Part shown: piece after piece, positions 3,093-24,118 of the stretch
How the letters are laid out: each line of letters starts with the position of its first letter
Position numbering within the stretch: the first letter of the stretch is position 1
Assembly: GCA_001790095.1 (NCBI GenBank)
Contig: MGBH01000001.1
Coordinates: 1,080,001-1,112,000 of the forward strand
Reading direction: 5' to 3'
Length of the DNA: 32,000 bases
From: Candidatus Saccharimonadota bacterium
Lineage (GTDB): Bacteria; Patescibacteriota; Microgenomatia; UBA1406; GWC2-37-13
Position numbers and translations under genes: made by a program
Notes under the pieces: model-generated
What the model was told of the DNA's origin: nothing
What the model saw: only the letters and a program-made list of their open reading frames with translations
The model's database searches: none

Positions 3093-3339
3093 TATTTCCA
3101 AAAGGAAAAAGTAAAAACAGTTGGCGATTGACATCTCTCATAAGACGTGTTCCATAGATGCGTTCATGTGTCGTTAAACACTTCACAAATTGTTCCAACT
3201 CTCCAACTTTAAAGCAGCGTCTTGTTTCTGCAAACCCTCCTTTTTTTATCTGTGAATATGTTTTTATAGGATAGCCAATTGATATTGCAAAAAGGAGCGG
3301 GCTGAGACATAGAAGTATAAGGGCAATCTTTTTATACAT
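3028..3339 (-). CDS. small membrane protein, unknown function (103 aa from ATG 3339)
   Basis: Hydrophobic N-terminus (MYKKIALILLCLSPLLFAISIG) and C-terminus (NIIFFAALFGAVLILGLVIFFF). The start overlaps the stop of the upstream GT-C gene by 8 nt. The longer 171-aa reading would overlap that gene by about 200 nt. Confidence 0.4.
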   Translation of the reverse strand: MYKKIALILLCLSPLLFAISIGYPIKTYSQIKKGGFAETRRCFKVGELEQFVKCLTTHERIYGTRLMRDVNRQLFLLFPFGNIIFFAALFGAVLILGLVIFFF

Positions 3340-4693
3340 AATATCTTGGTAAAAGTACATAACACAAAATAAAAAAATACTGCCAAAGTGAAAACAAAAA
3401 TAATCCATATGCGACTTGTTCTCCGTCTTTTTTTGTAAGATAGGTGAGTCCTCTCCATCCAAACATAATAAAAGGTAAAAGAATTGCCAAAAGATACCTA
3501 CCCTGAATATCGCAAGAGTACCGGTTGATTTTATATGTTGCACTTACCCCCAAGAAAAAAAGAAAAACACACAGACAGTATAGGAGGACATTTTGCCATT
3601 CAACCTTTTTTTTTGTTTTTAGATAATGGACAAATCCCATAATGATAAGAACAATAAAGGTTGAAGAATAAAACCAGAAAAAGGGTTTGAAAGGGTATGG
3701 TTCACCCCACCCCAAAAACCCCGCAAAATGAAAAAAAGCATGCCGAAACTCAAATACGATCTCAAATGGTAGTCTCAAAAGCGGTATAGAAGAGAGGTTG
3801 GCTGTACAAAACAGTGCATAAACTATGTATGACGGTGTAATACTGTGATAGGTGGTAAGAGAATAGTAAAACCAGGGAAAAAGAAGAACGAGGGAGAAAA
3901 CAATGGTCTGCGCAGCATAAAAAAAGTTTTGCTTTAACTTTTTTGTTCTCATTCCTCGTGCAATAAAGAATAAAAAGGCAAACAGAAGGAAAACAATGTT
4001 TTGGAATTTAATATAAGTGGCAACAACCACCAAAATACTTATGAAAAAGATTGTTTTCCTTGACAGCATTTTGTTTGCTGTAATTGTAAGAAATGTAAAT
4101 AAAATACCAAGCGCAAGGGCAGTTGATGCAATATCCGGATTCACTGCAATTCCCATCTTTAAGGTGACAGGGTTTACGGCAAATACAAAGACCAGATACT
4201 CACACACTTTTTTATTTTTTATGACCTTATTTATTACAAGCCACGCAAAGTATATTGCCAAAAAATAAAAAAAAGTAGACGCAAGACGAGTAGCATAATA
4301 AGTTGGAATAACCCCCCCTGTTAGACGATATACGGGGATAAAAAAAGGGAGGGCGCTTATAAAGTATAGGGGGGGGTGATGAGCTTGATATGTAAGGGGC
4401 GGGTTGTTTTGAAAAGTGGTAAAGCCTTTCATTTGTTTTACGGCATTTTGGATTTTTTGGAAGTTTGGAATATTGTGATCGTTGCTTGCAACCTCAACAA
4501 CATCATATATTTGCTTGATGGAAGGGTCAAATACATACAGTCCGGATTTTAGAGGTGTTTTGGGATAGATACCCTGAGCGAGATAATAAACATATTGAAA
4601 ATGATCCGGTTCATCATTGAGTTGAAAGGGAGGGATTGCTATAAAAAAAACAATGTACAAAAAAAGAATAAGAAAAACATACCGTTTCCTCAT
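3332..4693 (-). CDS. polytopic GT-C-type membrane glycosyltransferase-like protein (PMT/ArnT/DUF2142-like)
   Basis: More than 10 predicted TM segments. An acidic first-loop motif PPFQLNDEPDHFQYVYYLA follows TM1, as in GT-C fold enzymes. The start at 4693 forms an ATGA overlap with the stop of the upstream PT-rich gene. Confidence 0.55.
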   Translation of the reverse strand: MRKRYVFLILFLYIVFFIAIPPFQLNDEPDHFQYVYYLAQGIYPKTPLKSGLYVFDPSIKQIYDVVEVASNDHNIPNFQKIQNAVKQMKGFTTFQNNPPLTYQAHHPPLYFISALPFFIPVYRLTGGVIPTYYATRLASTFFYFLAIYFAWLVINKVIKNKKVCEYLVFVFAVNPVTLKMGIAVNPDIASTALALGILFTFLTITANKMLSRKTIFFISILVVVATYIKFQNIVFLLFAFLFFIARGMRTKKLKQNFFYAAQTIVFSLVLLFPWFYYSLTTYHSITPSYIVYALFCTANLSSIPLLRLPFEIVFEFRHAFFHFAGFLGWGEPYPFKPFFWFYSSTFIVLIIMGFVHYLKTKKKVEWQNVLLYCLCVFLFFLGVSATYKINRYSCDIQGRYLLAILLPFIMFGWRGLTYLTKKDGEQVAYGLFLFSLWQYFFILCYVLLPRYYV

Positions 4694-5127
4694 TTCGTTT
4701 TTTCGTGGATCCATGTCTTTATTTTAGGCCACAGTTGAAAGAATATGCCAAAAACAAGAATTCCTATGACTATCAGCATAATAATTTCTTTTGTGGATGG
4801 GGTCGATGATTTTGGACTGGGAGTAATTGGGGGCGCTGTAGGGGTTGTGCTAGGGGATAATTCAATAGATGGAGTGGGAAACGGTGTTTCAGTTGGTGCT
4901 GGGGTAGATGTTGGAGCGTCAGTTGGAGAAGGAGTAATGGTTGGAGTATTGGTGGGTAAGAAAAAAAGCGGAGGAATTTTTTTTATAAAAAAAGAGGTTG
5001 GTTTTGGCGTACTAGTTGGGAAAAGGAGAGGGAATTTGAGATCCCAAATATCTGCATATACATAGCTTCGTAGTGAAAGAAAATTAAAAATAAGCAGCAA
5101 GACAAACACCCCTTTTTGTATTCTCAT
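4690..5127 (-). CDS. Pro/Thr-rich surface protein with signal peptide and C-terminal TM anchor
   Basis: N-terminal signal-like MRIQKGVFVLLLIFNFLSLRSYVYA. Long PT-rich tract (PTNTPTITPSPTDAPTSTPAPTETPFPTPS...TPTAPPITPSPKSSTPST). C-terminal TM IIMLIVIGILVFGIFFQLW. Confidence 0.6.
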   Translation of the reverse strand: MRIQKGVFVLLLIFNFLSLRSYVYADIWDLKFPLLFPTSTPKPTSFFIKKIPPLFFLPTNTPTITPSPTDAPTSTPAPTETPFPTPSIELSPSTTPTAPPITPSPKSSTPSTKEIIMLIVIGILVFGIFFQLWPKIKTWIHEKTK

Positions 5128-5238: not shown

Positions 5239-5562
5239 ATGAATGTGGTAACTCTTACAAAAGATGCTTTTCCGAGAGAAGTATTAGCCTCAAAAGGTTA
5301 TGTATTTGTTGATTTCTACGCAGAGTGGTGTGGTCCATGTAAGTTAACTTCTCCCATCATTGACAGTTTAGCCGATGAGTATAAAGACATAAAGTTTTAT
5401 AAAGTAAACGTAGATGAAAACAGTGAGCTTGCTTCTCAATACTCAGTGTTTTCCATTCCAACCTTCGTTATTTTCAAAGGGGGAGAAGTGGTTGCGCAGT
5501 TTTCAGGCGCCTTAGGAAAAGAGGGCTTTGTAAAAGAAATAAAACAGGTAACAGGTGCTTAA
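5239..5562 (+). CDS. trxA: thioredoxin
   Basis: 107 aa with the WCGPCK active site, the downstream FKVNVDEN and IPTFVIFKGGE pattern, and typical thioredoxin length. Confidence 0.9.
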   Translation: MNVVTLTKDAFPREVLASKGYVFVDFYAEWCGPCKLTSPIIDSLADEYKDIKFYKVNVDENSELASQYSVFSIPTFVIFKGGEVVAQFSGALGKEGFVKEIKQVTGA

Positions 5563-5567
5563 TCCCA

Positions 5568-5987
5568 CTATCTTCTTATTACTCGTATAACCTTTCCACC
5601 AACTATCCGTAAGGTTAAATGAGCCTGTCTCAAGATAAAAATGGCAAACTCAGAAAGCCAACGGCTCGATGAATTTATCGGGTCATGCAATCCTTTTATG
5701 ACTTTTTCATCGGAGATTGGCAGTTTGACATTTTTATACGAAGAGAACTGGGAGGCGGTAGTAGGTTGAAGCCCAAGCATAGTCAGGTCGGGTGGAAGTT
5801 TGATTGTCTCATGTCTTTGTTGTACATACGGCTTGACTTCAGGGGAGACTTGGTGTTCACTCGATTCCTGCATCTGTAGGGATTCGGTTGGAATAGAAAC
5901 AGGTTCAACCTCCTTAGGCAGGCCAATAGAAGACTGTTTCCATTTCTTGATGAGATCGTCAATTGAGGTATAGTTCTTTGCGGTCAT
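5568..5987 (-). CDS. hypothetical protein (139 aa), second gene of the riboswitch-associated pair
   Basis: Non-overlapping ORF 21 nt downstream of the 402-aa gene on the same strand. Acidic/polar N-terminal half and a hydrophobic/amphipathic C-terminus (WLSEFAIFILRQAHLTLRIVGGKVIRVIRR). I recognise no family. Confidence 0.5.
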   Translation of the reverse strand: MTAKNYTSIDDLIKKWKQSSIGLPKEVEPVSIPTESLQMQESSEHQVSPEVKPYVQQRHETIKLPPDLTMLGLQPTTASQFSSYKNVKLPISDEKVIKGLHDPINSSSRWLSEFAIFILRQAHLTLRIVGGKVIRVIRR

Positions 5988-6008
5988 AATTCCATTATAA
6001 AGGAAAAT

Positions 6009-7217
6009 TTAAGCGCATGTTTGTCCACCCACTTCTCTGGCATACTGTTCTTTGGTGACTCCGCAGTGGGGGCAAGAGGTACGTCCTTCACCTGAGGGGA
6101 TAGGACGACCGCATTTTGGACAAGGGAAAGAATTGCTTTTTTCTTCACTTGCGTATTTCTCAAGCGGGGTTCCTTTTAATATCGCATTTATAAGGTCAGT
6201 ATTTGAAATATAGGTTTCTTTTACGTCTCCAGGAAGTGTATGGTTATGGTTTTCAACTACCGGACAGCTGCCTCCTCCTTCAACAAGGGGGCTATTCTGT
6301 TGGATCTGTTGGTATGCATACTGCATGTGCTCATTTGAAAAAGGAGAAAAGCTATATGTTTTTGTTTTAATCTTTTGAGCATATAAATAAATAATAAGAA
6401 GTATCGCCTCTGCTTGTCGTGTCTTATCTAAATAATCGAAAGTATTAGGAGGAATCCGAGTTAAGGTAAGCATGAGTGAAGTGTATACAGAGATCCATGA
6501 GGTAAGATACACTTCAATCTCTTTTTCAAACATCATTGATTGCTGGATTTTATGTTGATCTATTCCAACAGATTTAAGAAGCAAGCGTAGACTATCTTCT
6601 GGTTGAGATGGGCTAATAAATAATGGAGTTCTAAGAAAGGTCTCAGCAGTGTTAAACTCTAAAGGCGGCAGTACTCCAATATCTTGTGCGATTTGCTGGC
6701 TTTTTCTTAAGCTCCCCCTTTTTTCATCATATCTCAAAATGTATTCTTTTACTTTTCCGTTTTGTTGAGGTGCCAGCACAAACATAAATCCATAATCTGC
6801 ATCCTTTGGGGGAGAGATCCATACTGCGGTTGGTTGCTTGTCCCAATACGTTCTCTTGAATACTTCTTCAATCTTCCCAAATCCCTCTGTTTCAGCTTTT
6901 TCCCGATCATTACCCAAACTTGCTGCCTTTGTATATGAATCCATCATATGCATTCCGGCATAATCAAACCCATCCGGTTTAAGGGAGTAGGGAATAGTTG
7001 TATAGGGAACCTTTCCGACGAACTCTCCTAAGAAACGTTTTACATTTTCCTCTAGATAATAGACTTTTTCTTCATCTGGTATTTTTTCTGCCTGCTTGAG
7101 GAATTGGACCTCGTTTTCTATAGAATAATATTTAAAGATAGAGTCAGGTCGGCCCTCATATCGTGCAAGCCAAGAAGTATCAATTTCTCGCGGGTAATAA
7201 CCTGTTTCTTGTCTCAT
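6009..7217 (-). CDS. hypothetical protein with C-terminal C4 zinc ribbon (402 aa from ATG 7217)
   Basis: Long clean ORF. The C-terminus FPCPKCGRPIPSGEGRTSCPHCG is a CxxC-N12-CxxC zinc ribbon, and no obvious TM segments are present. I chose ATG 7217. The 31-codon extension in the ORF track (to 7310) is Arg/Cys-rich and coincides with the structured riboswitch-like RNA. Confidence 0.6.
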   Translation of the reverse strand: MRQETGYYPREIDTSWLARYEGRPDSIFKYYSIENEVQFLKQAEKIPDEEKVYYLEENVKRFLGEFVGKVPYTTIPYSLKPDGFDYAGMHMMDSYTKAASLGNDREKAETEGFGKIEEVFKRTYWDKQPTAVWISPPKDADYGFMFVLAPQQNGKVKEYILRYDEKRGSLRKSQQIAQDIGVLPPLEFNTAETFLRTPLFISPSQPEDSLRLLLKSVGIDQHKIQQSMMFEKEIEVYLTSWISVYTSLMLTLTRIPPNTFDYLDKTRQAEAILLIIYLYAQKIKTKTYSFSPFSNEHMQYAYQQIQQNSPLVEGGGSCPVVENHNHTLPGDVKETYISNTDLINAILKGTPLEKYASEEKSNSFPCPKCGRPIPSGEGRTSCPHCGVTKEQYAREVGGQTCA

Positions 7218-7236: not shown

Positions 7237-7314
7237 AAGGCAAGAGAAAGGTGTCGGACTTTACCGTTGCGGCACAGTCGCTGATTTACACAGCGTTCCC
7301 GTTTTCTCAAGCTT
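7237..7314 (-). promoter_or_regulatory. cobalamin (B12) riboswitch-like aptamer, compact variant
   Basis: The reverse complement reads AAGCUUGAGAAAACGGGAACGCUGUGUAAAUCAGCGACUGUGCCGCAACGGUAAAGUCCGACACCUUUCUCUUGCCUU. A closing helix GAGAAA/UUUCUC (7308-7303 with 7249-7244) is extended by AAGC/GC(C)UU. GGGAA is followed by the hairpin CGCUG-UGUAAAU-CAGCG. GCCGCAACGGUAA resembles CCCGCnACUGUnA, and AGUCCGACACC resembles the B12 box AGYCMGgAgaCC. It sits between a PduO-type adenosyltransferase gene and an unknown gene. Confidence 0.6.
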
Positions 7315-7369: not shown

Positions 7370-7894
7370 TTATACGGTTTCCTCGTGCTTCGTATTATAT
7401 GTACGTGCAAGCATGAACAAAAGATCTGATAGGCGGTTAAGATAGCCAACAACAATAAGTAGTTTCTTATTTATTTTAGGTTGATTTTGCATATACGCAA
7501 CAATGTGTCGTTCAGCTCTTCGACACACAGTACGGGCAAGATGAAAAAAGACAGATATTTGAGTTCCTTGAGGGAGTATGAACTTCGAAAGAGGAGGAAG
7601 CGTTTTTGTTATTTCATCTATTTTTTTCTCAATAAGGGAAGTTTTTATATTATATCGGGTCAAGTCGATTCGGGCACCACTTACATATGCCATAATTCCG
7701 TGTAGCTGACCTTGAATATTACTCAGAAAGGCCACGTGTTGCTTGTTTGGGTGAAAAGAAATTACTATTCCTAAAACTGAAGAAAGCTCATCAAGCGAAC
7801 CATAAGCCTCTACTTGCGGATTGGCTTTAGACACCCGCTTGCCTCCATAAAGAGAGGTTGTGCCATCATCGCCAGTACGGGTATATATAGACAT
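7370..7894 (-). CDS. ATP:cob(I)alamin adenosyltransferase, PduO-type
   Basis: From ATG 7894: MSIYTRTGDDGTTSLYGGKRVSKANPQVEAYGSLDELSS..., the signature N-terminus of PduO/MMAB-type adenosyltransferases, plus ARTVCRRAER. The start lies 1 nt after the nrdJ stop codon. Confidence 0.85.
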   Translation of the reverse strand: MSIYTRTGDDGTTSLYGGKRVSKANPQVEAYGSLDELSSVLGIVISFHPNKQHVAFLSNIQGQLHGIMAYVSGARIDLTRYNIKTSLIEKKIDEITKTLPPLSKFILPQGTQISVFFHLARTVCRRAERHIVAYMQNQPKINKKLLIVVGYLNRLSDLLFMLARTYNTKHEETV

Positions 7895-7895
7895 T

Positions 7896-10253
7896 TTAAC
7901 ACTCAGAGTAACCGCATCCATAACATTTTTTACACCCTTCTTCATGGGCAAGAGATGCCTCACCGCAGGAGGGACACAGATCAAACAAACCCTTTGAGAT
8001 GGGGGGTTGTTGGATAAGAGAGGCTTGAGTGACTTCTGTGATAAGACGTGGTTCTTCCTTTTTTTCCTCTTTTTTTGCGTGGTTTCCTATCCCATAATGC
8101 ATGGAAAGTACTTTGGCTACTGCATCTGGAAGACTCCTAATTTTATCTTTTCCAAAACCAAGTGTTCTTGCTCCACCTATACCTTCAAGTTGGGAGACTA
8201 TTTCCTGAACTCTTTGCATAGCTGGAAGATGAGAGGCAAATCGTAGAGCAAGAGATATCGTTCTTCCCAAACCCTCAGCCATGGCAGATATATCTGATCC
8301 GGGCTTGCTGATGTTGATAAATACTTCAAGCGGCTCAGGGGGAGTTCCTCCATTGGTATTGATGGTTATAAATGCAACACCAACAGGAGTATTGATGCGG
8401 TAGGTAGAACCATGCACTACCATGGGGCGCGGTTTTACACTATATTGTGGCGTAGTGGGCTTTTTCTCTTCTTCTTTTTTATCTATGCGTTCCAAAACCC
8501 CTGCGCGTGATCCTTCTCTCATATATGCTATACCTTTGAGGCCTTGTTTATATGCAATACTATATAAACGTTTTACGTCTTCAACCGTGTGTGACTTTGG
8601 GGCGTTAACAGTTTTTGAGATAGAGGCATCGACATATTGTTGTATTGCGGCTTGTACAAGAATATGATCCTCGGGGGTAAGTTCGTTGGCAGACACAAAC
8701 CATTCTGGCTTTTTCAATTTGCCTTCCTTTACTTCCTTCTCATGTTTTTTTAACCATTTATCATATAAGTGGTGACGTAGTACGTGTTCACCAAGGCGAT
8801 CTTTTCTTATAAATTCAAATTCAAATACCGGTTCAATACCGGATGTGGTATCGGCCATAAGAGAGGTTGACCCAGTTGGCGCCTGCATAAGAAGGATAGA
8901 GTTACGAATCCCTGTTTGCGTGATTCCTTTTTTGATATCTTCGGGAAGTTGTTCGATAAATTTACCTTTTATATATTTATTTTTTTCAAGTTTAGGGAAG
9001 CTTCCTTTCTCCGACGCTACCTCAACAGATGTTCGGTAAGCCTCGTCTCGAATAAGTTTGTAGACTTTATTGATAAAGGTGATGGATTCTTTAGAACCAT
9101 AACGCATGTGAAGTTTGATAAGCGTATCACCAAGCCCCATGGTGCCAAGACCGATTCGTCTTTCACCCTCAAGTTGTGTCTGGCGTATTCCCTCAAAGAA
9201 ATATTGGTCCATATCAATTACATTATCCTGGAAACGCACTCCTGCACGCACGACTTTCTTTAAGCCTGAAAAGTCAAACTTTCCTTTTTTGTCTATATTA
9301 TTGCCTTTTACCAGAGCTGAAAGGTTGACAGATCCGAGATTACATACGCCCCATGGAGGAAGACCTTCTTCACCGCAAGGATTCACACAGTTTATCCTGT
9401 TCCAATACCAGTTATTATTCATTTTATTATAACGTTCCATAAAAACCACACCCGGTTCCGCTGATTTCCATGCTGCCTCTGCTATTAAATCCCAGATTTT
9501 TCGTGCCTTTACAACCTTACGTACAACGATCTTTTTCCCTAGTTTTTTCCACTCTTCAAGATCACCATTCCATTTGTCATCGTATTCAGGATCGCTGGTG
9601 TCAGGAAAAACAAGCGGCCAATCAGCATCTTTATCTACCGCCTCCATAAACGTATCAGATATGCAAAGAGACAGATTAGCTCCATTGATACGGTTTAAGT
9701 CTTGCTTGACGGTTATAAACTCCTCAATATCAGGATGCCAGTCCCAAAGCATAAGCATGAGAGCTCCACGACGGGTGCCTCCTTGTTGAATAATGTCTTT
9801 TGTCGCTACAGAAAAAAGTTCAGCCCAGTTTATGGGGCCTGAAGAAAACCCATTTACTTTACGGACTCGTGATCCTCGGGGACGAAGGGATGAGAGATTT
9901 ATTCCGACACCGCCACCTCTGGCCATGATTTCAACCATCCGTTTTAAGGTTTCCAAAATACCACCTCGAGAATCTTTAGGGCTTGGTATCACAAAACAAT
10001 TGTAAAATGTTACTTCAAAACCAGTACCTGCTCCAGCAAGAATTCGGCCACCTGGAATATATTTGAAATCCTTCATTGCCTCATAGAATTCTCTCTCCCA
10101 CTTTTTCTGATGTTCTTTTTTTTCCTTAACCGAGACTGCTTTTGCGATTCTTTTCCACATCTCACCAGGCGATTTTTCCAAAGGAGCGCCTTTTTTATCC
10201 TTAAGTGAATAACGATCAAGAAAAACCTTTTCTGATATGCCGGCGAGCTTCAT
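7896..10253 (-). CDS. nrdJ: adenosylcobalamin-dependent (class II) ribonucleotide reductase
   Basis: 785 aa with the NPCGEEGLPPWGVCNLGSVNL active-site region and SKTVNAP. The Cys-rich C-terminal tail CPSCGEASLAHEEGCKKCYGCGYSEC is typical of NrdJ. It is flanked by nrdR and a B12 adenosyltransferase gene. Confidence 0.9.
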   Translation of the reverse strand: MKLAGISEKVFLDRYSLKDKKGAPLEKSPGEMWKRIAKAVSVKEKKEHQKKWEREFYEAMKDFKYIPGGRILAGAGTGFEVTFYNCFVIPSPKDSRGGILETLKRMVEIMARGGGVGINLSSLRPRGSRVRKVNGFSSGPINWAELFSVATKDIIQQGGTRRGALMLMLWDWHPDIEEFITVKQDLNRINGANLSLCISDTFMEAVDKDADWPLVFPDTSDPEYDDKWNGDLEEWKKLGKKIVVRKVVKARKIWDLIAEAAWKSAEPGVVFMERYNKMNNNWYWNRINCVNPCGEEGLPPWGVCNLGSVNLSALVKGNNIDKKGKFDFSGLKKVVRAGVRFQDNVIDMDQYFFEGIRQTQLEGERRIGLGTMGLGDTLIKLHMRYGSKESITFINKVYKLIRDEAYRTSVEVASEKGSFPKLEKNKYIKGKFIEQLPEDIKKGITQTGIRNSILLMQAPTGSTSLMADTTSGIEPVFEFEFIRKDRLGEHVLRHHLYDKWLKKHEKEVKEGKLKKPEWFVSANELTPEDHILVQAAIQQYVDASISKTVNAPKSHTVEDVKRLYSIAYKQGLKGIAYMREGSRAGVLERIDKKEEEKKPTTPQYSVKPRPMVVHGSTYRINTPVGVAFITINTNGGTPPEPLEVFINISKPGSDISAMAEGLGRTISLALRFASHLPAMQRVQEIVSQLEGIGGARTLGFGKDKIRSLPDAVAKVLSMHYGIGNHAKKEEKKEEPRLITEVTQASLIQQPPISKGLFDLCPSCGEASLAHEEGCKKCYGCGYSEC

Positions 10254-23636: not shown

Positions 23637-24112
23637 GGGGATGCAAGGCATCGACGAGGAAATTGCACTTTTACAAACGGCGAGAGAGGTATCTATACCT
23701 TGACCCTCGTAGCCCGCAAGGGCGAAGTGGGTCGTCAAATAGAAAAAAGATAACTGCTAATTCATTTAATATGAAAAAAGCAATGCAACCTTTAGCCGAC
23801 GTTTTTGAGGAAATGCAGGCAGCAATGTTTGCACCTTCAAAATATGCGTTCGCAATGAATGCATAAGTTTGCAAAAGGTTTGCTAACCTCTTTGTAGTTT
23901 CTCCTGGTTCAACTATAAAAGAGGGTTAAACCAACCGGGATAGAGCAAACTGGCTTTTTCAGTCAGCCGGGGAGTTCGAATAAACCCTTAAACTGACAGT
24001 TCGAAAACGTCTATGTGTTCTACGTTTCGGACTGGAGTAAAGACACTTTATCTCTCGCTAAACGTTTATAAGGGTGTTTCCCCGGACCCGGGTCCAATTC
24101 CCGGCATCTCCA
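23637..24112 (+). ncRNA. ssrA: tmRNA (transfer-messenger RNA), about 476 nt without encoded CCA
   Basis: The 5' GGGGAUG pairs with the 3' CAUCUCC (24105-24111), including the G3:U wobble (Ala identity). GGCAUCGACGAGG is the 5' conserved box. The 3' UUUCCCCGGAC-CCGGG-UCCAAUU-CCCGG T-arm (24088-24104) parallels E. coli UUUCGGAC-GCGGG-UUCAACU-CCCGC. An A-rich single strand ...GAUAACU precedes a GCU resume-type codon at 23756. The in-frame stop UAA is at 23864-23866. Confidence 0.85.
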
Positions 24113-24118
24113 CACTCC

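Follow-up and report, generated by a model that had tools for sequence, protein, structure and literature searches.

Two uncharacterized genes preceded by a cobalamin riboswitch at the end of a class II ribonucleotide reductase block: a candidate B12-repressed module in Roizmanbacteria and other Microgenomates

What is the role of two adjacent genes that lie directly behind a cobalamin (vitamin B12) riboswitch and encode proteins belonging to no known family? The question is raised by a stretch of 32,000 nucleotides from a Candidatus Saccharimonadota bacterium placed by GTDB in the Microgenomatia (assembly GCA_001790095.1, contig MGBH01000001.1, positions 1,080,001 to 1,112,000), which is referred to here in its entirety as the window. 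The genes encode a 402-aa zinc ribbon protein, designated X, and a 139-aa protein, designated Y. An earlier reading of the window made from its letters and open reading frames (the sequence-only reading) had proposed the pair as a candidate undescribed B12-responsive module, a proposal that is supported here by the riboswitch and by association with nrdJ and pduO and that no result obtained contradicts. X and Y constitute a two-gene unit that follows a cobalamin riboswitch and closes an nrdR-nrdJ-pduO block, an arrangement conserved across a family restricted to Roizmanbacteria/Microgenomates, and the unit is very probably a genuine cobalamin-repressed module. The riboswitch is of a known kind, whereas the X and Y that it gates are a new family without detectable relatives in sequence or, in the structure collections searched, in fold; no description of the X family was found in the literature. 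The elements of the unit are as follows, in window coordinates.

7311-7241, minus strand: riboswitch aptamer, Rfam family RF01689 (cmscan, 41.4 bits)
7240-7215, minus strand: expression platform, read from the sequence and from related loci
7240-7236, minus strand: linker CCUUA, read from the sequence
7235-7224, minus strand: hairpin CCCC-GAGCA-GGG, the putative P13/L13
7227-7223, minus strand: ribosome-binding site AGGGA, read from the sequence; it shares bases with the 3' strand of the stem
7217-7215, minus strand: AUG of X after a U5 spacer, read from the sequence
7217-6009, minus strand: X, 402-aa zinc ribbon protein, open reading frame from ATG
5987-5568, minus strand: Y, 139-aa open reading frame

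The RNA upstream of X, previously described as cobalamin-riboswitch-like, is a genuine riboswitch with a recognizable expression platform. RF01689 ("AdoCbl-variant" or AdoCbl-II, clan CL00101) matches over its full length (model positions 1 to 81 of 81), with a score above the gathering score of 36.5 bits (E = 8.5e-7). The end of the aptamer at 7241 is separated from the AUG of X by 23 bases, reading CCUUA-CCCC-GAGCA-GGG-A-UUUUU-AUG. Although both open reading frames are present where they had been drawn, mechanical extension of X continues upstream to a TTG at 7310; the start is placed at 7217 because the TTG extension overlaps the aptamer and because a conserved element of hairpin, ribosome-binding site, and AUG fixes the start codon. 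This element, CCCCG-N1-3-GCAGGGA-N5-11-AUG, is found at the start of X in 33 of 43 related loci irrespective of the Rfam aptamer model that matches upstream, and in three loci the stem carries compensatory changes on both sides that keep the pairing (CCU:AGG in L014 and UCC:GGA in L046/L048). Loop L5 of the aptamer reads UGCCG, lying within CUGUGCCGCAAC in the window, and its context is identical in every related locus from which it could be extracted. L5 is complementary to the L13 sequence CG[N]GCA of the hairpin, with one to three bases bulged, such that the P13/L13 hairpin is able to kiss L5 and occlude the ribosome-binding site, by analogy with the system described in PMC5028336. Minimum-free-energy folding of the leader gave a z score of -0.37 and was uninformative; the platform was recognized by comparing the loci.

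In env8HyCbl, a member of RF01689, cobalamin stabilizes a kissing loop between L5 and L13 that has unpaired nucleotides and thereby closes the hairpin bearing the ribosome-binding site (PMC5028336), and this mechanism has been shown experimentally for env8HyCbl and btuB (PMC5028336, PMC10653944). The window RNA belongs to the same Rfam family and likewise has a short linker from P1 to P13, a small hairpin bearing the ribosome-binding site, and one or more unpaired L13 nucleotides. Because this architecture matches that of the experimentally studied env8HyCbl, we strongly infer by analogy that the window RNA is a translational OFF switch through which cobalamin represses translation of X and Y. 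Cobalamin bound to the aptamer would stabilize the L5-L13 kissing loop and hide the AGGGA site, switching the unit off; since bound cobalamin would hide this site, X and Y would be translated only when cytoplasmic cobalamin is scarce. Despite the AdoCbl-II label of RF01689, the form sensed may be other than adenosylcobalamin (AdoCbl), as env8HyCbl itself prefers hydroxocobalamin and methylcobalamin over AdoCbl (PMC5028336). A caution on the OFF reading is that one activating corrinoid riboswitch is known (PMC10653944). Switches of the env8HyCbl type control transporter or biosynthesis genes, in contrast to the window switch, which precedes the uncharacterized X-Y pair.

The recurrence of the riboswitch was assessed in 45 distinct loci encoding X, namely, the window, 18 loci from species-representative genomes, 18 from metagenomes, and 8 reached through individual proteins, the last of which take in the most divergent profile matches. 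In all 45, X is immediately preceded by a same-strand match to the cobalamin clan; 42 of these matches reach the Rfam gathering score, and the other 3, in the same place, miss it narrowly. RF00174 accounts for 25 of the loci at or above the gathering score (L023 falls below it at 30.4 bits), RF01689 accounts for 15 (with L012 at 31.3 bits and L040 at 28.3 bits below), and RF01482 accounts for 2, with no locus below. Whereas env8HyCbl is of the RF01689 type, loci orthologous to the window can thus use RF00174 or RF01482 aptamers instead. The three models occur at one position, and most of the loci (L001 to L048) share a CCCCG-N-GCAGGGA hairpin at the start codon of X; comparison of these sequences makes it seem that the periphery of the aptamer was remodelled while the kissing-loop platform stayed fixed. 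The riboswitch is kept in the most divergent members (L044 to L048) and in loci that lack nrdJ (L015, L024/L025, and L043).

These loci are not independent samples, because all of them come from one bacterial group, and the collections share near-duplicates such as L019/L020, L022/L023, L024/L025, L032/L033, and L046/L047. It could accordingly be supposed that X-Y has a function unrelated to cobalamin and that inherited synteny is all that keeps it beside the riboswitch, which would make the connection with B12 incidental; the named members are all Roizmanbacteria/Microgenomates, and shared ancestry therefore inflates the locus count. Against this, the riboswitch stays immediately 5' of X as X drops below 25% identity, as the aptamer model changes among RF00174, RF01689, and RF01482, and as the surrounding genes change completely (L015, L024/L025, and L043), and the hairpin carrying the ribosome-binding site belongs to the switch itself. 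A bond between riboswitch and X that outlasts change in neighborhood, in aptamer, and in X itself is more than inherited synteny alone can explain, and an incidental link is highly improbable.

Among the 40 loci with sufficient downstream sequence, 36 have Y directly 3' of X; two of the 36 are weak cases, L045, in which Y scores 19 bits, and L011, in which it is recognized solely from its position and size. Y is absent from L015, L043, and L044. In the window the two genes share a reading frame, only 21 nt (the TAA stop plus six codons) lie between them, and no obvious Shine-Dalgarno sequence stands in front of the start of Y (window 5987-7217, minus strand). Translation of Y may thus depend on ribosomes finishing X. 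No fusions of X and Y were found in the family search, and a scan for promoters and terminators gave no more matches than did shuffled sequence.

The genes around the unit had been read as a minus-strand series of nrdR, nrdJ, pduO, the RNA, X, and Y that ends against a convergent trxA, and this order was borne out by Pfam and NCBIfam.

10730-10284, minus strand: nrdR, repressor, first gene of the block (Pfam PF22811 and PF03477)
10253-7896, minus strand: nrdJ, class II (B12-dependent) ribonucleotide reductase (PF02867, E = 2.6e-126; also PF00317)
within 10253-7896, minus strand: TSCPD domain in NrdJ (PF12637, E = 1.1e-10)
approximately 7894-7370, minus strand: PduO-type ATP:cob(I)alamin adenosyltransferase (PF01923, E = 3.2e-51; TIGR00636, 159.9 bits), its start near 7894 placed from the onset of the Pfam match and of homologues
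5239-5562, plus strand: trxA, thioredoxin, convergent with Y (PF00085, E = 1.5e-30)

The linkage to nrdJ and pduO that a B12 module would be expected to show is present in nearly all loci: nrdJ-pduO precedes the unit and trxA follows it. Most often the series runs nrdR-nrdJ-pduO, an optional insert, the riboswitch, X, and Y, with trxA convergent; trxA is kept as a neighbor in nearly all loci, including some that lack nrdJ. The optional inserts are of three kinds, consisting of a DUF4430 gene with a DUF6580 gene, of purine synthesis genes, or of a HAD family gene. No genes for corrin synthesis were seen within the 32-kb window or in the related loci. Two RF01689 riboswitches are present in L017, at 5003-5083 and 5810-5884, one before pduO (50.5 bits) and one before X (42.9 bits); since a riboswitch of its own precedes pduO, the adenosyltransferase of this locus is also cobalamin gated. 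Twelve of the loci (L001 to L003, L005, L009 to L011, L013, L014, and L016 to L018) come from third-party-annotation metagenome-assembled genomes titled "uncultured Gammaproteobacteria bacterium". These genomes carry the Roizmanbacteria-type nrdR-nrdJ-pduO-X-Y-trxA block, with NrdJ 64 to 82% identical to that of the window, and their record titles look like placeholder taxonomy.

The loci with altered neighborhoods are informative about what stays with X. In L024/L025, msrA, a peroxiredoxin gene, DUF4430, and DUF6580 genes precede the riboswitch, X, and Y, with convergent trxA and msrB and no nrdJ. L043 has the riboswitch and X, without Y, divergent from DUF4430-DUF6580. L015 (5775-10111) has the riboswitch and X alone, without Y, nrdJ, or trxA, flanked by a divergent DsbA-like thioredoxin-fold gene and by a Fur/Zur-ZnuA-ZnuC-ZnuB zinc uptake cluster. 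A separate observation in L043 is a 330-aa open reading frame (5977-6969, plus strand), two genes downstream of X and past a convergent HflX-type GTPase gene, which has a weak APOBEC/AID-like deaminase match (PF18771, 4.6e-5, below the cutoff).

DUF4430 and DUF6580 genes adjoin X in about a third of the loci and are absent from the window. DUF4430 is presumed here to be a small cobalamin-binding domain that also occurs in transcobalamin-type binders, and on this understanding of DUF4430 we take both genes to be B12 uptake genes. Their placement immediately upstream of the riboswitch and X in many loci, and divergent from X in L043, could mean that X-Y is a cytoplasmic accessory of this uptake system which docks on its membrane component and pulls or releases cobalamin inside, raising the affinity of uptake when B12 is scarce. 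Uptake is the commonest function found under B12 riboswitches, and the amphipathic, basic C-terminal module of Y (described below) could sit at a membrane surface. However, X-Y stands with no DUF4430 or DUF6580 gene nearby in the window and in many other loci, the transporter genes are not behind the riboswitch, and X has no ATPase or ECF-module features in Pfam or NCBIfam, which together make an uptake accessory distinctly unlikely. The reading preferred here is one in which the corrinoid is handled by X within the cytoplasm, and it draws on the residues of X and on the neighboring genes.

X is a soluble protein with a C-terminal C4 zinc ribbon, CPKCG-N12-CPHCG, formed by C366, C369, C382, and C385. 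It holds exactly six cysteines, the others being C318, in a GGGSCP loop, and C401, near the terminus. The ribbon and the motifs GGGSCPVVENHNH and WISPPKDADYGFMFVLAP (GGGSCPV and WISPPK) that had been singled out are all present as quoted, and the absence of transmembrane helices is upheld by a maximal Kyte-Doolittle 19-residue mean of 1.21, with no transmembrane-like segment. Homologues of X were found in 75 clusters by a word-indexed search and in at least 528 clusters at 50% identity by an exhaustive profile search, 300 of the latter with E <= 1e-10, and homologues of Y were found in 86 clusters; X and Y are therefore not chance open reading frames. The members of the X family are 350 to 540 aa long, have a single architecture, and are all unannotated, and the named ones all belong to Candidatus Roizmanbacteria, to Microgenomates, or to the "Patescibacteria group". 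Across 194 family members, C318 is the best-conserved residue (99%), followed by E65, R105, S135, and P198 (98%) and G112 (95%); E106, E109, P136, P137, Y142, R162, Y163, Y54, and Y245 are conserved at 86 to 93%, and the four ribbon cysteines are conserved at 89 to 96%. A cysteine near the C terminus is present in approximately 55 to 74% of members.

An AlphaFold model of X made with the family alignment (predicted local distance difference test score [pLDDT], 85.2; predicted TM-score, 0.80) consists of an N-terminal alpha/beta domain, a bundle of long helices, the C318 loop, and the zinc ribbon. Residues 319 to 333, just past C318, have pLDDT values below 50, and the loop with GGGSC318P is flexible as modelled. 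Searches for relatives returned little beyond the ribbon: Pfam and NCBIfam gave zinc ribbon matches below their cutoffs only, 75 distant members scanned singly against family models gave ribbon matches only, a sequence profile search of the PDB gave ribbons only, and a PHROG scan gave one ribbon-only match, to a family of unknown function. The PADLOC scan gave no match to an antiphage defense family. Taken over X, Y, and divergent members, the Pfam, NCBIfam, PHROG, and PADLOC scans yielded nothing but zinc ribbon noise. Foldseek comparison of the X model with the PDB and BFVD yielded no match with E <= 0.001, and TM-scores did not exceed 0.17. Thus, profiles, AlphaFold, and Foldseek gave no confident match to a housekeeping family. 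The two proteins had also been judged unlike BtuB/BtuFCD, ECF-CbrT, BtuM, CobT/S, MetE, and NrdAB/DG, and indeed no significant match was found to the profiles of BtuB, BtuFCD, ECF-CbrT, BtuM, CobA/CobT/CobS, CbiZ, MetE, NrdAB, or NrdDG. Two specific assignments were considered and rejected: X is not a P-loop protein, as the spacing in GEFVGKV is wrong and the segment is a helix end in the model, and it is not a TSCPD protein despite its GSCP motif, as there is no PF12637 match at E <= 1.

X evolves quickly in comparison with NrdJ. Over 16 loci in which all six proteins were aligned, median identity to the window proteins was 81% for NrdJ, 66% for NrdR, 65% for thioredoxin, 47% for PduO, 41% for Y, and 40% for X; in 11 of these loci X had the lowest identity of any of the proteins. 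L023 is the extreme case. Its NrdJ shares 86% identity with that of the window, a value exceeded only in L031 (89%), and its Y shares 69%; at the position of X it encodes a 381-aa protein (5831-6976; also in L022) that BLASTP and hhalign link to X through the ribbon only. A hidden Markov model built from the 194 members aligns RE..E..GF and W.SP weakly (1.8 bits) and G-C-S and the ribbon more strongly, all in the same order. The possibility that this protein is an unrelated replacement was rejected on the ground that the family model aligns the core motifs in order, and it is treated as an extremely divergent member of the X family within conserved synteny.

Y has no family match in Pfam or NCBIfam, and Foldseek comparison of its model with the PDB gave nothing at E <= 0.001. 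Its first 88 residues are acidic, with pLDDT values of 60 to 69 in the N-terminal half, and are probably disordered, judging from the model. Residues 90 to 139 form a conserved helix-helix-beta-hairpin module (pLDDT, 91 to 94) in which alignments show S107 and W110 to be invariant and the tail to be basic. The charge pattern attributed to Y by the sequence-only reading holds, the N-terminal half being mildly acidic (net charge, -2) and the C-terminal half basic (+7). Y has no transmembrane-like segment (maximal Kyte-Doolittle 19-residue mean, 1.13).

The residues of X and the genes around it suggest that X-Y may serve in corrinoid capture or processing, a role that is put forward as a tentative and rather doubtful assignment. 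In this explanation, X would be a cytoplasmic corrinoid-handling protein made under B12 scarcity. C318, on its flexible GGGSCP loop and backed by a predicted pocket lined with Glu, Arg, Tyr, and Ser and by the zinc ribbon tail, would ligate incoming nonadenosylated cobalamin or process it by thiolate chemistry (decyanation, dealkylation, or reduction). The adjacent thioredoxin would supply X with reducing power, and X would pass its product to PduO for adenosylation and thence to NrdJ. Y could act as an adaptor composed of a disordered acidic arm and a small docking module, with X, PduO, NrdJ, or the DUF6580 membrane component as its partner. Ligation of cobalt by a thiolate is the working principle of BtuM, which performs cysteine-mediated decyanation, and of the CblC/CblD complex (MMACHC/MMADHC). 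As a working analogy, a single cysteine of X could ligate cobalt in the same manner, X-Y is likewise a set of two proteins of which one (here Y) has a long disordered N-terminal arm, and X would be placed ahead of a PduO-type adenosyltransferase in the pathway. Unlike these proteins, X lacks a nitroreductase-like or ECF S-component fold (Foldseek against the PDB) and transmembrane segments, and only X has a zinc ribbon.

Several observations weigh against the corrinoid-handling explanation. In profile, PDB, and Foldseek comparisons, X resembles no known B12-binding or B12-processing protein in sequence or fold, and it has neither a DxHxxG-type motif nor a conserved His; corrinoid binding by X is a prediction. 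Evolution as rapid as that of X, compared with NrdJ, is seen more typically in adaptors or regulators than in enzymes. The DUF4430 and DUF6580 genes lie mostly upstream of the riboswitch and are hence ungated, which is odd for a shared uptake route, and pduO is usually outside riboswitch control. A conserved cysteine and a neighboring thioredoxin would fit any redox role equally well. Taken as a whole, the explanation of X-Y as a repressed unit for thiol-based handling of cobalamin on behalf of PduO and NrdJ is the favored one, and it is held tentatively, being a little more apt to fail than to stand.

The same rapid evolution, together with a Y that is half disordered and ends in a docking module, is typical of adaptors and regulators, and zinc ribbons are common in nucleic acid- and protein-binding regulators. 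X-Y might therefore be a regulator or checkpoint of B12 starvation that adjusts the cell to a failing supply of deoxynucleoside triphosphates (dNTPs) without touching corrinoid; it might relieve repression by NrdR, stabilize or titrate apo-NrdJ, or pause replication or division. The linkage to nrdR-nrdJ persists at very low X identity, and several loci are near dnaA-dnaN. On the other hand, the near-invariant polar and aromatic residues and the cysteine conserved at 99% resemble a ligand or catalytic site more than an interaction surface, the riboswitch is kept where nrdR and nrdJ are not nearby (L015, L024/L025, and L043), and no DNA-binding domain was detected. A purely regulatory role is considered unlikely, and thiol-based corrinoid handling remains preferred over it.

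The cysteines of X also invite comparison with those of NrdJ. The NrdJ of the window ends in a six-cysteine tail, CPSCG-x10-CKKCYGCGYSEC (window 7896-8000, minus strand), which has the pattern of the cysteine-rich domain (CRD) of class II reductases, and its TSCPD motif reads RSLPD, so that the name-giving cysteine is missing. The CRD cysteines described in PMC5704485 are C920, C923, C933, C936, C939, and C945, and the physiological reductant of this pattern was left unidentified in that study. X resembles the CRD in having a C-terminal C4 zinc site plus extra cysteines, six in total, and its gene shares an operon with that of a CRD-bearing NrdJ and adjoins a thioredoxin gene. The spacing differs, being C-x2-C-x12-C-x2-C...C in X and C-x2-C-x10-C-x2-C-x2-C-x4-C in the window NrdJ tail; C318 of X lies 48 residues upstream in a loop, and the trailing cysteine is not universal in the family. 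The C terminus of X, C366-x2-C369-x12-C382-x2-C385-x15-C401, contains no CxxCxxC and does not have the CRD pattern, which the window NrdJ does have. A weak NCBIfam match aligns residues 354 to 389 of X with the NrdJ tail (E = 0.17).

This resemblance bears on whether X-Y is a B12-independent backup that would sustain deoxyribonucleotide production without AdoCbl, either a nonhomologous substitute for ribonucleotide reduction or an alternative activator or reductant for it. The six cysteines of X (the ribbon and two others) recall the C-terminal electron shuttle domain of NrdJ (PMC5704485), a thioredoxin is adjacent, and Tyr54, Tyr142, Tyr163, and Tyr245 are conserved. Against the proposal, X has no barrel of the ribonucleotide reductase/PFL type and no Foldseek match, no radical cofactor motif (Fe-S CxxxCxxC, ferritin-like ligands, or glycyl radical motif), and only one conserved cysteine outside the ribbon; it diverges far faster than any known ribonucleotide reductase, and 400 residues are few for ribonucleotide reductase chemistry. 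Repression under B12 and a place beside what is probably the sole B12 enzyme do fit the logic of the metE and nrdAB/nrdDG isozymes. A backup of this kind is very unlikely. Slightly less probable again is a new-fold, thioredoxin-linked, B12-independent rescue of dNTP synthesis that replaces AdoCbl or NrdJ itself, in which X-Y could serve apo-NrdJ as another means of radical initiation or of electron transfer, or could make dNTPs by an entirely new route. The favored explanation, handling of corrinoid for PduO and NrdJ, shares with the metE, nrdAB, and nrdDG isozymes and with the btuB, btuFCD, ECF-CbrT, and BtuM operons that X-Y would be expressed at low cobalamin only, and X-Y is likewise linked genomically to a B12-dependent enzyme. 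X and Y differ from the proteins of these riboswitch-gated isozyme and uptake families in having no sequence or fold similarity to them and in both being soluble.

Elsewhere in the window, a tmRNA gene is present at 23637-24115 on the plus strand (78.3 bits, E = 5.5e-29); it spans 479 nt compared with 374 nt for the model and has long insertions, especially around the region of the tag reading frame. Beyond trxA, a 145-aa open reading frame rich in Pro, Thr, and Ser (4690-5127, minus strand) has a signal-like segment at its N terminus and a hydrophobic one at its C terminus, and a 460-aa polytopic membrane open reading frame follows (3332-4714, minus strand), for which the gene at the same position in L023 matches PMT_2, a glycosyltransferase family. 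These two genes may be an envelope glycosylation pair, judging from their sequences.

B12 riboswitch regulons have been a productive guide to new transporters, salvage enzymes, and B12-independent isozymes. X-Y is cobalamin-riboswitch gated in every locus examined and yet has no known family, fold, or published description. Its hosts are ultra-small, uncultured bacteria in whose loci the only obvious B12 enzyme is the ribonucleotide reductase that makes dNTPs, and the unit bears both on how bacteria of the candidate phyla radiation cope with vitamin scarcity and on the reductant of CRD-type class II reductases. Should corrinoid handling prove not to be the role of X-Y, the alternatives would be a new regulator of starvation or a new bypass independent of B12, and either would be more surprising.

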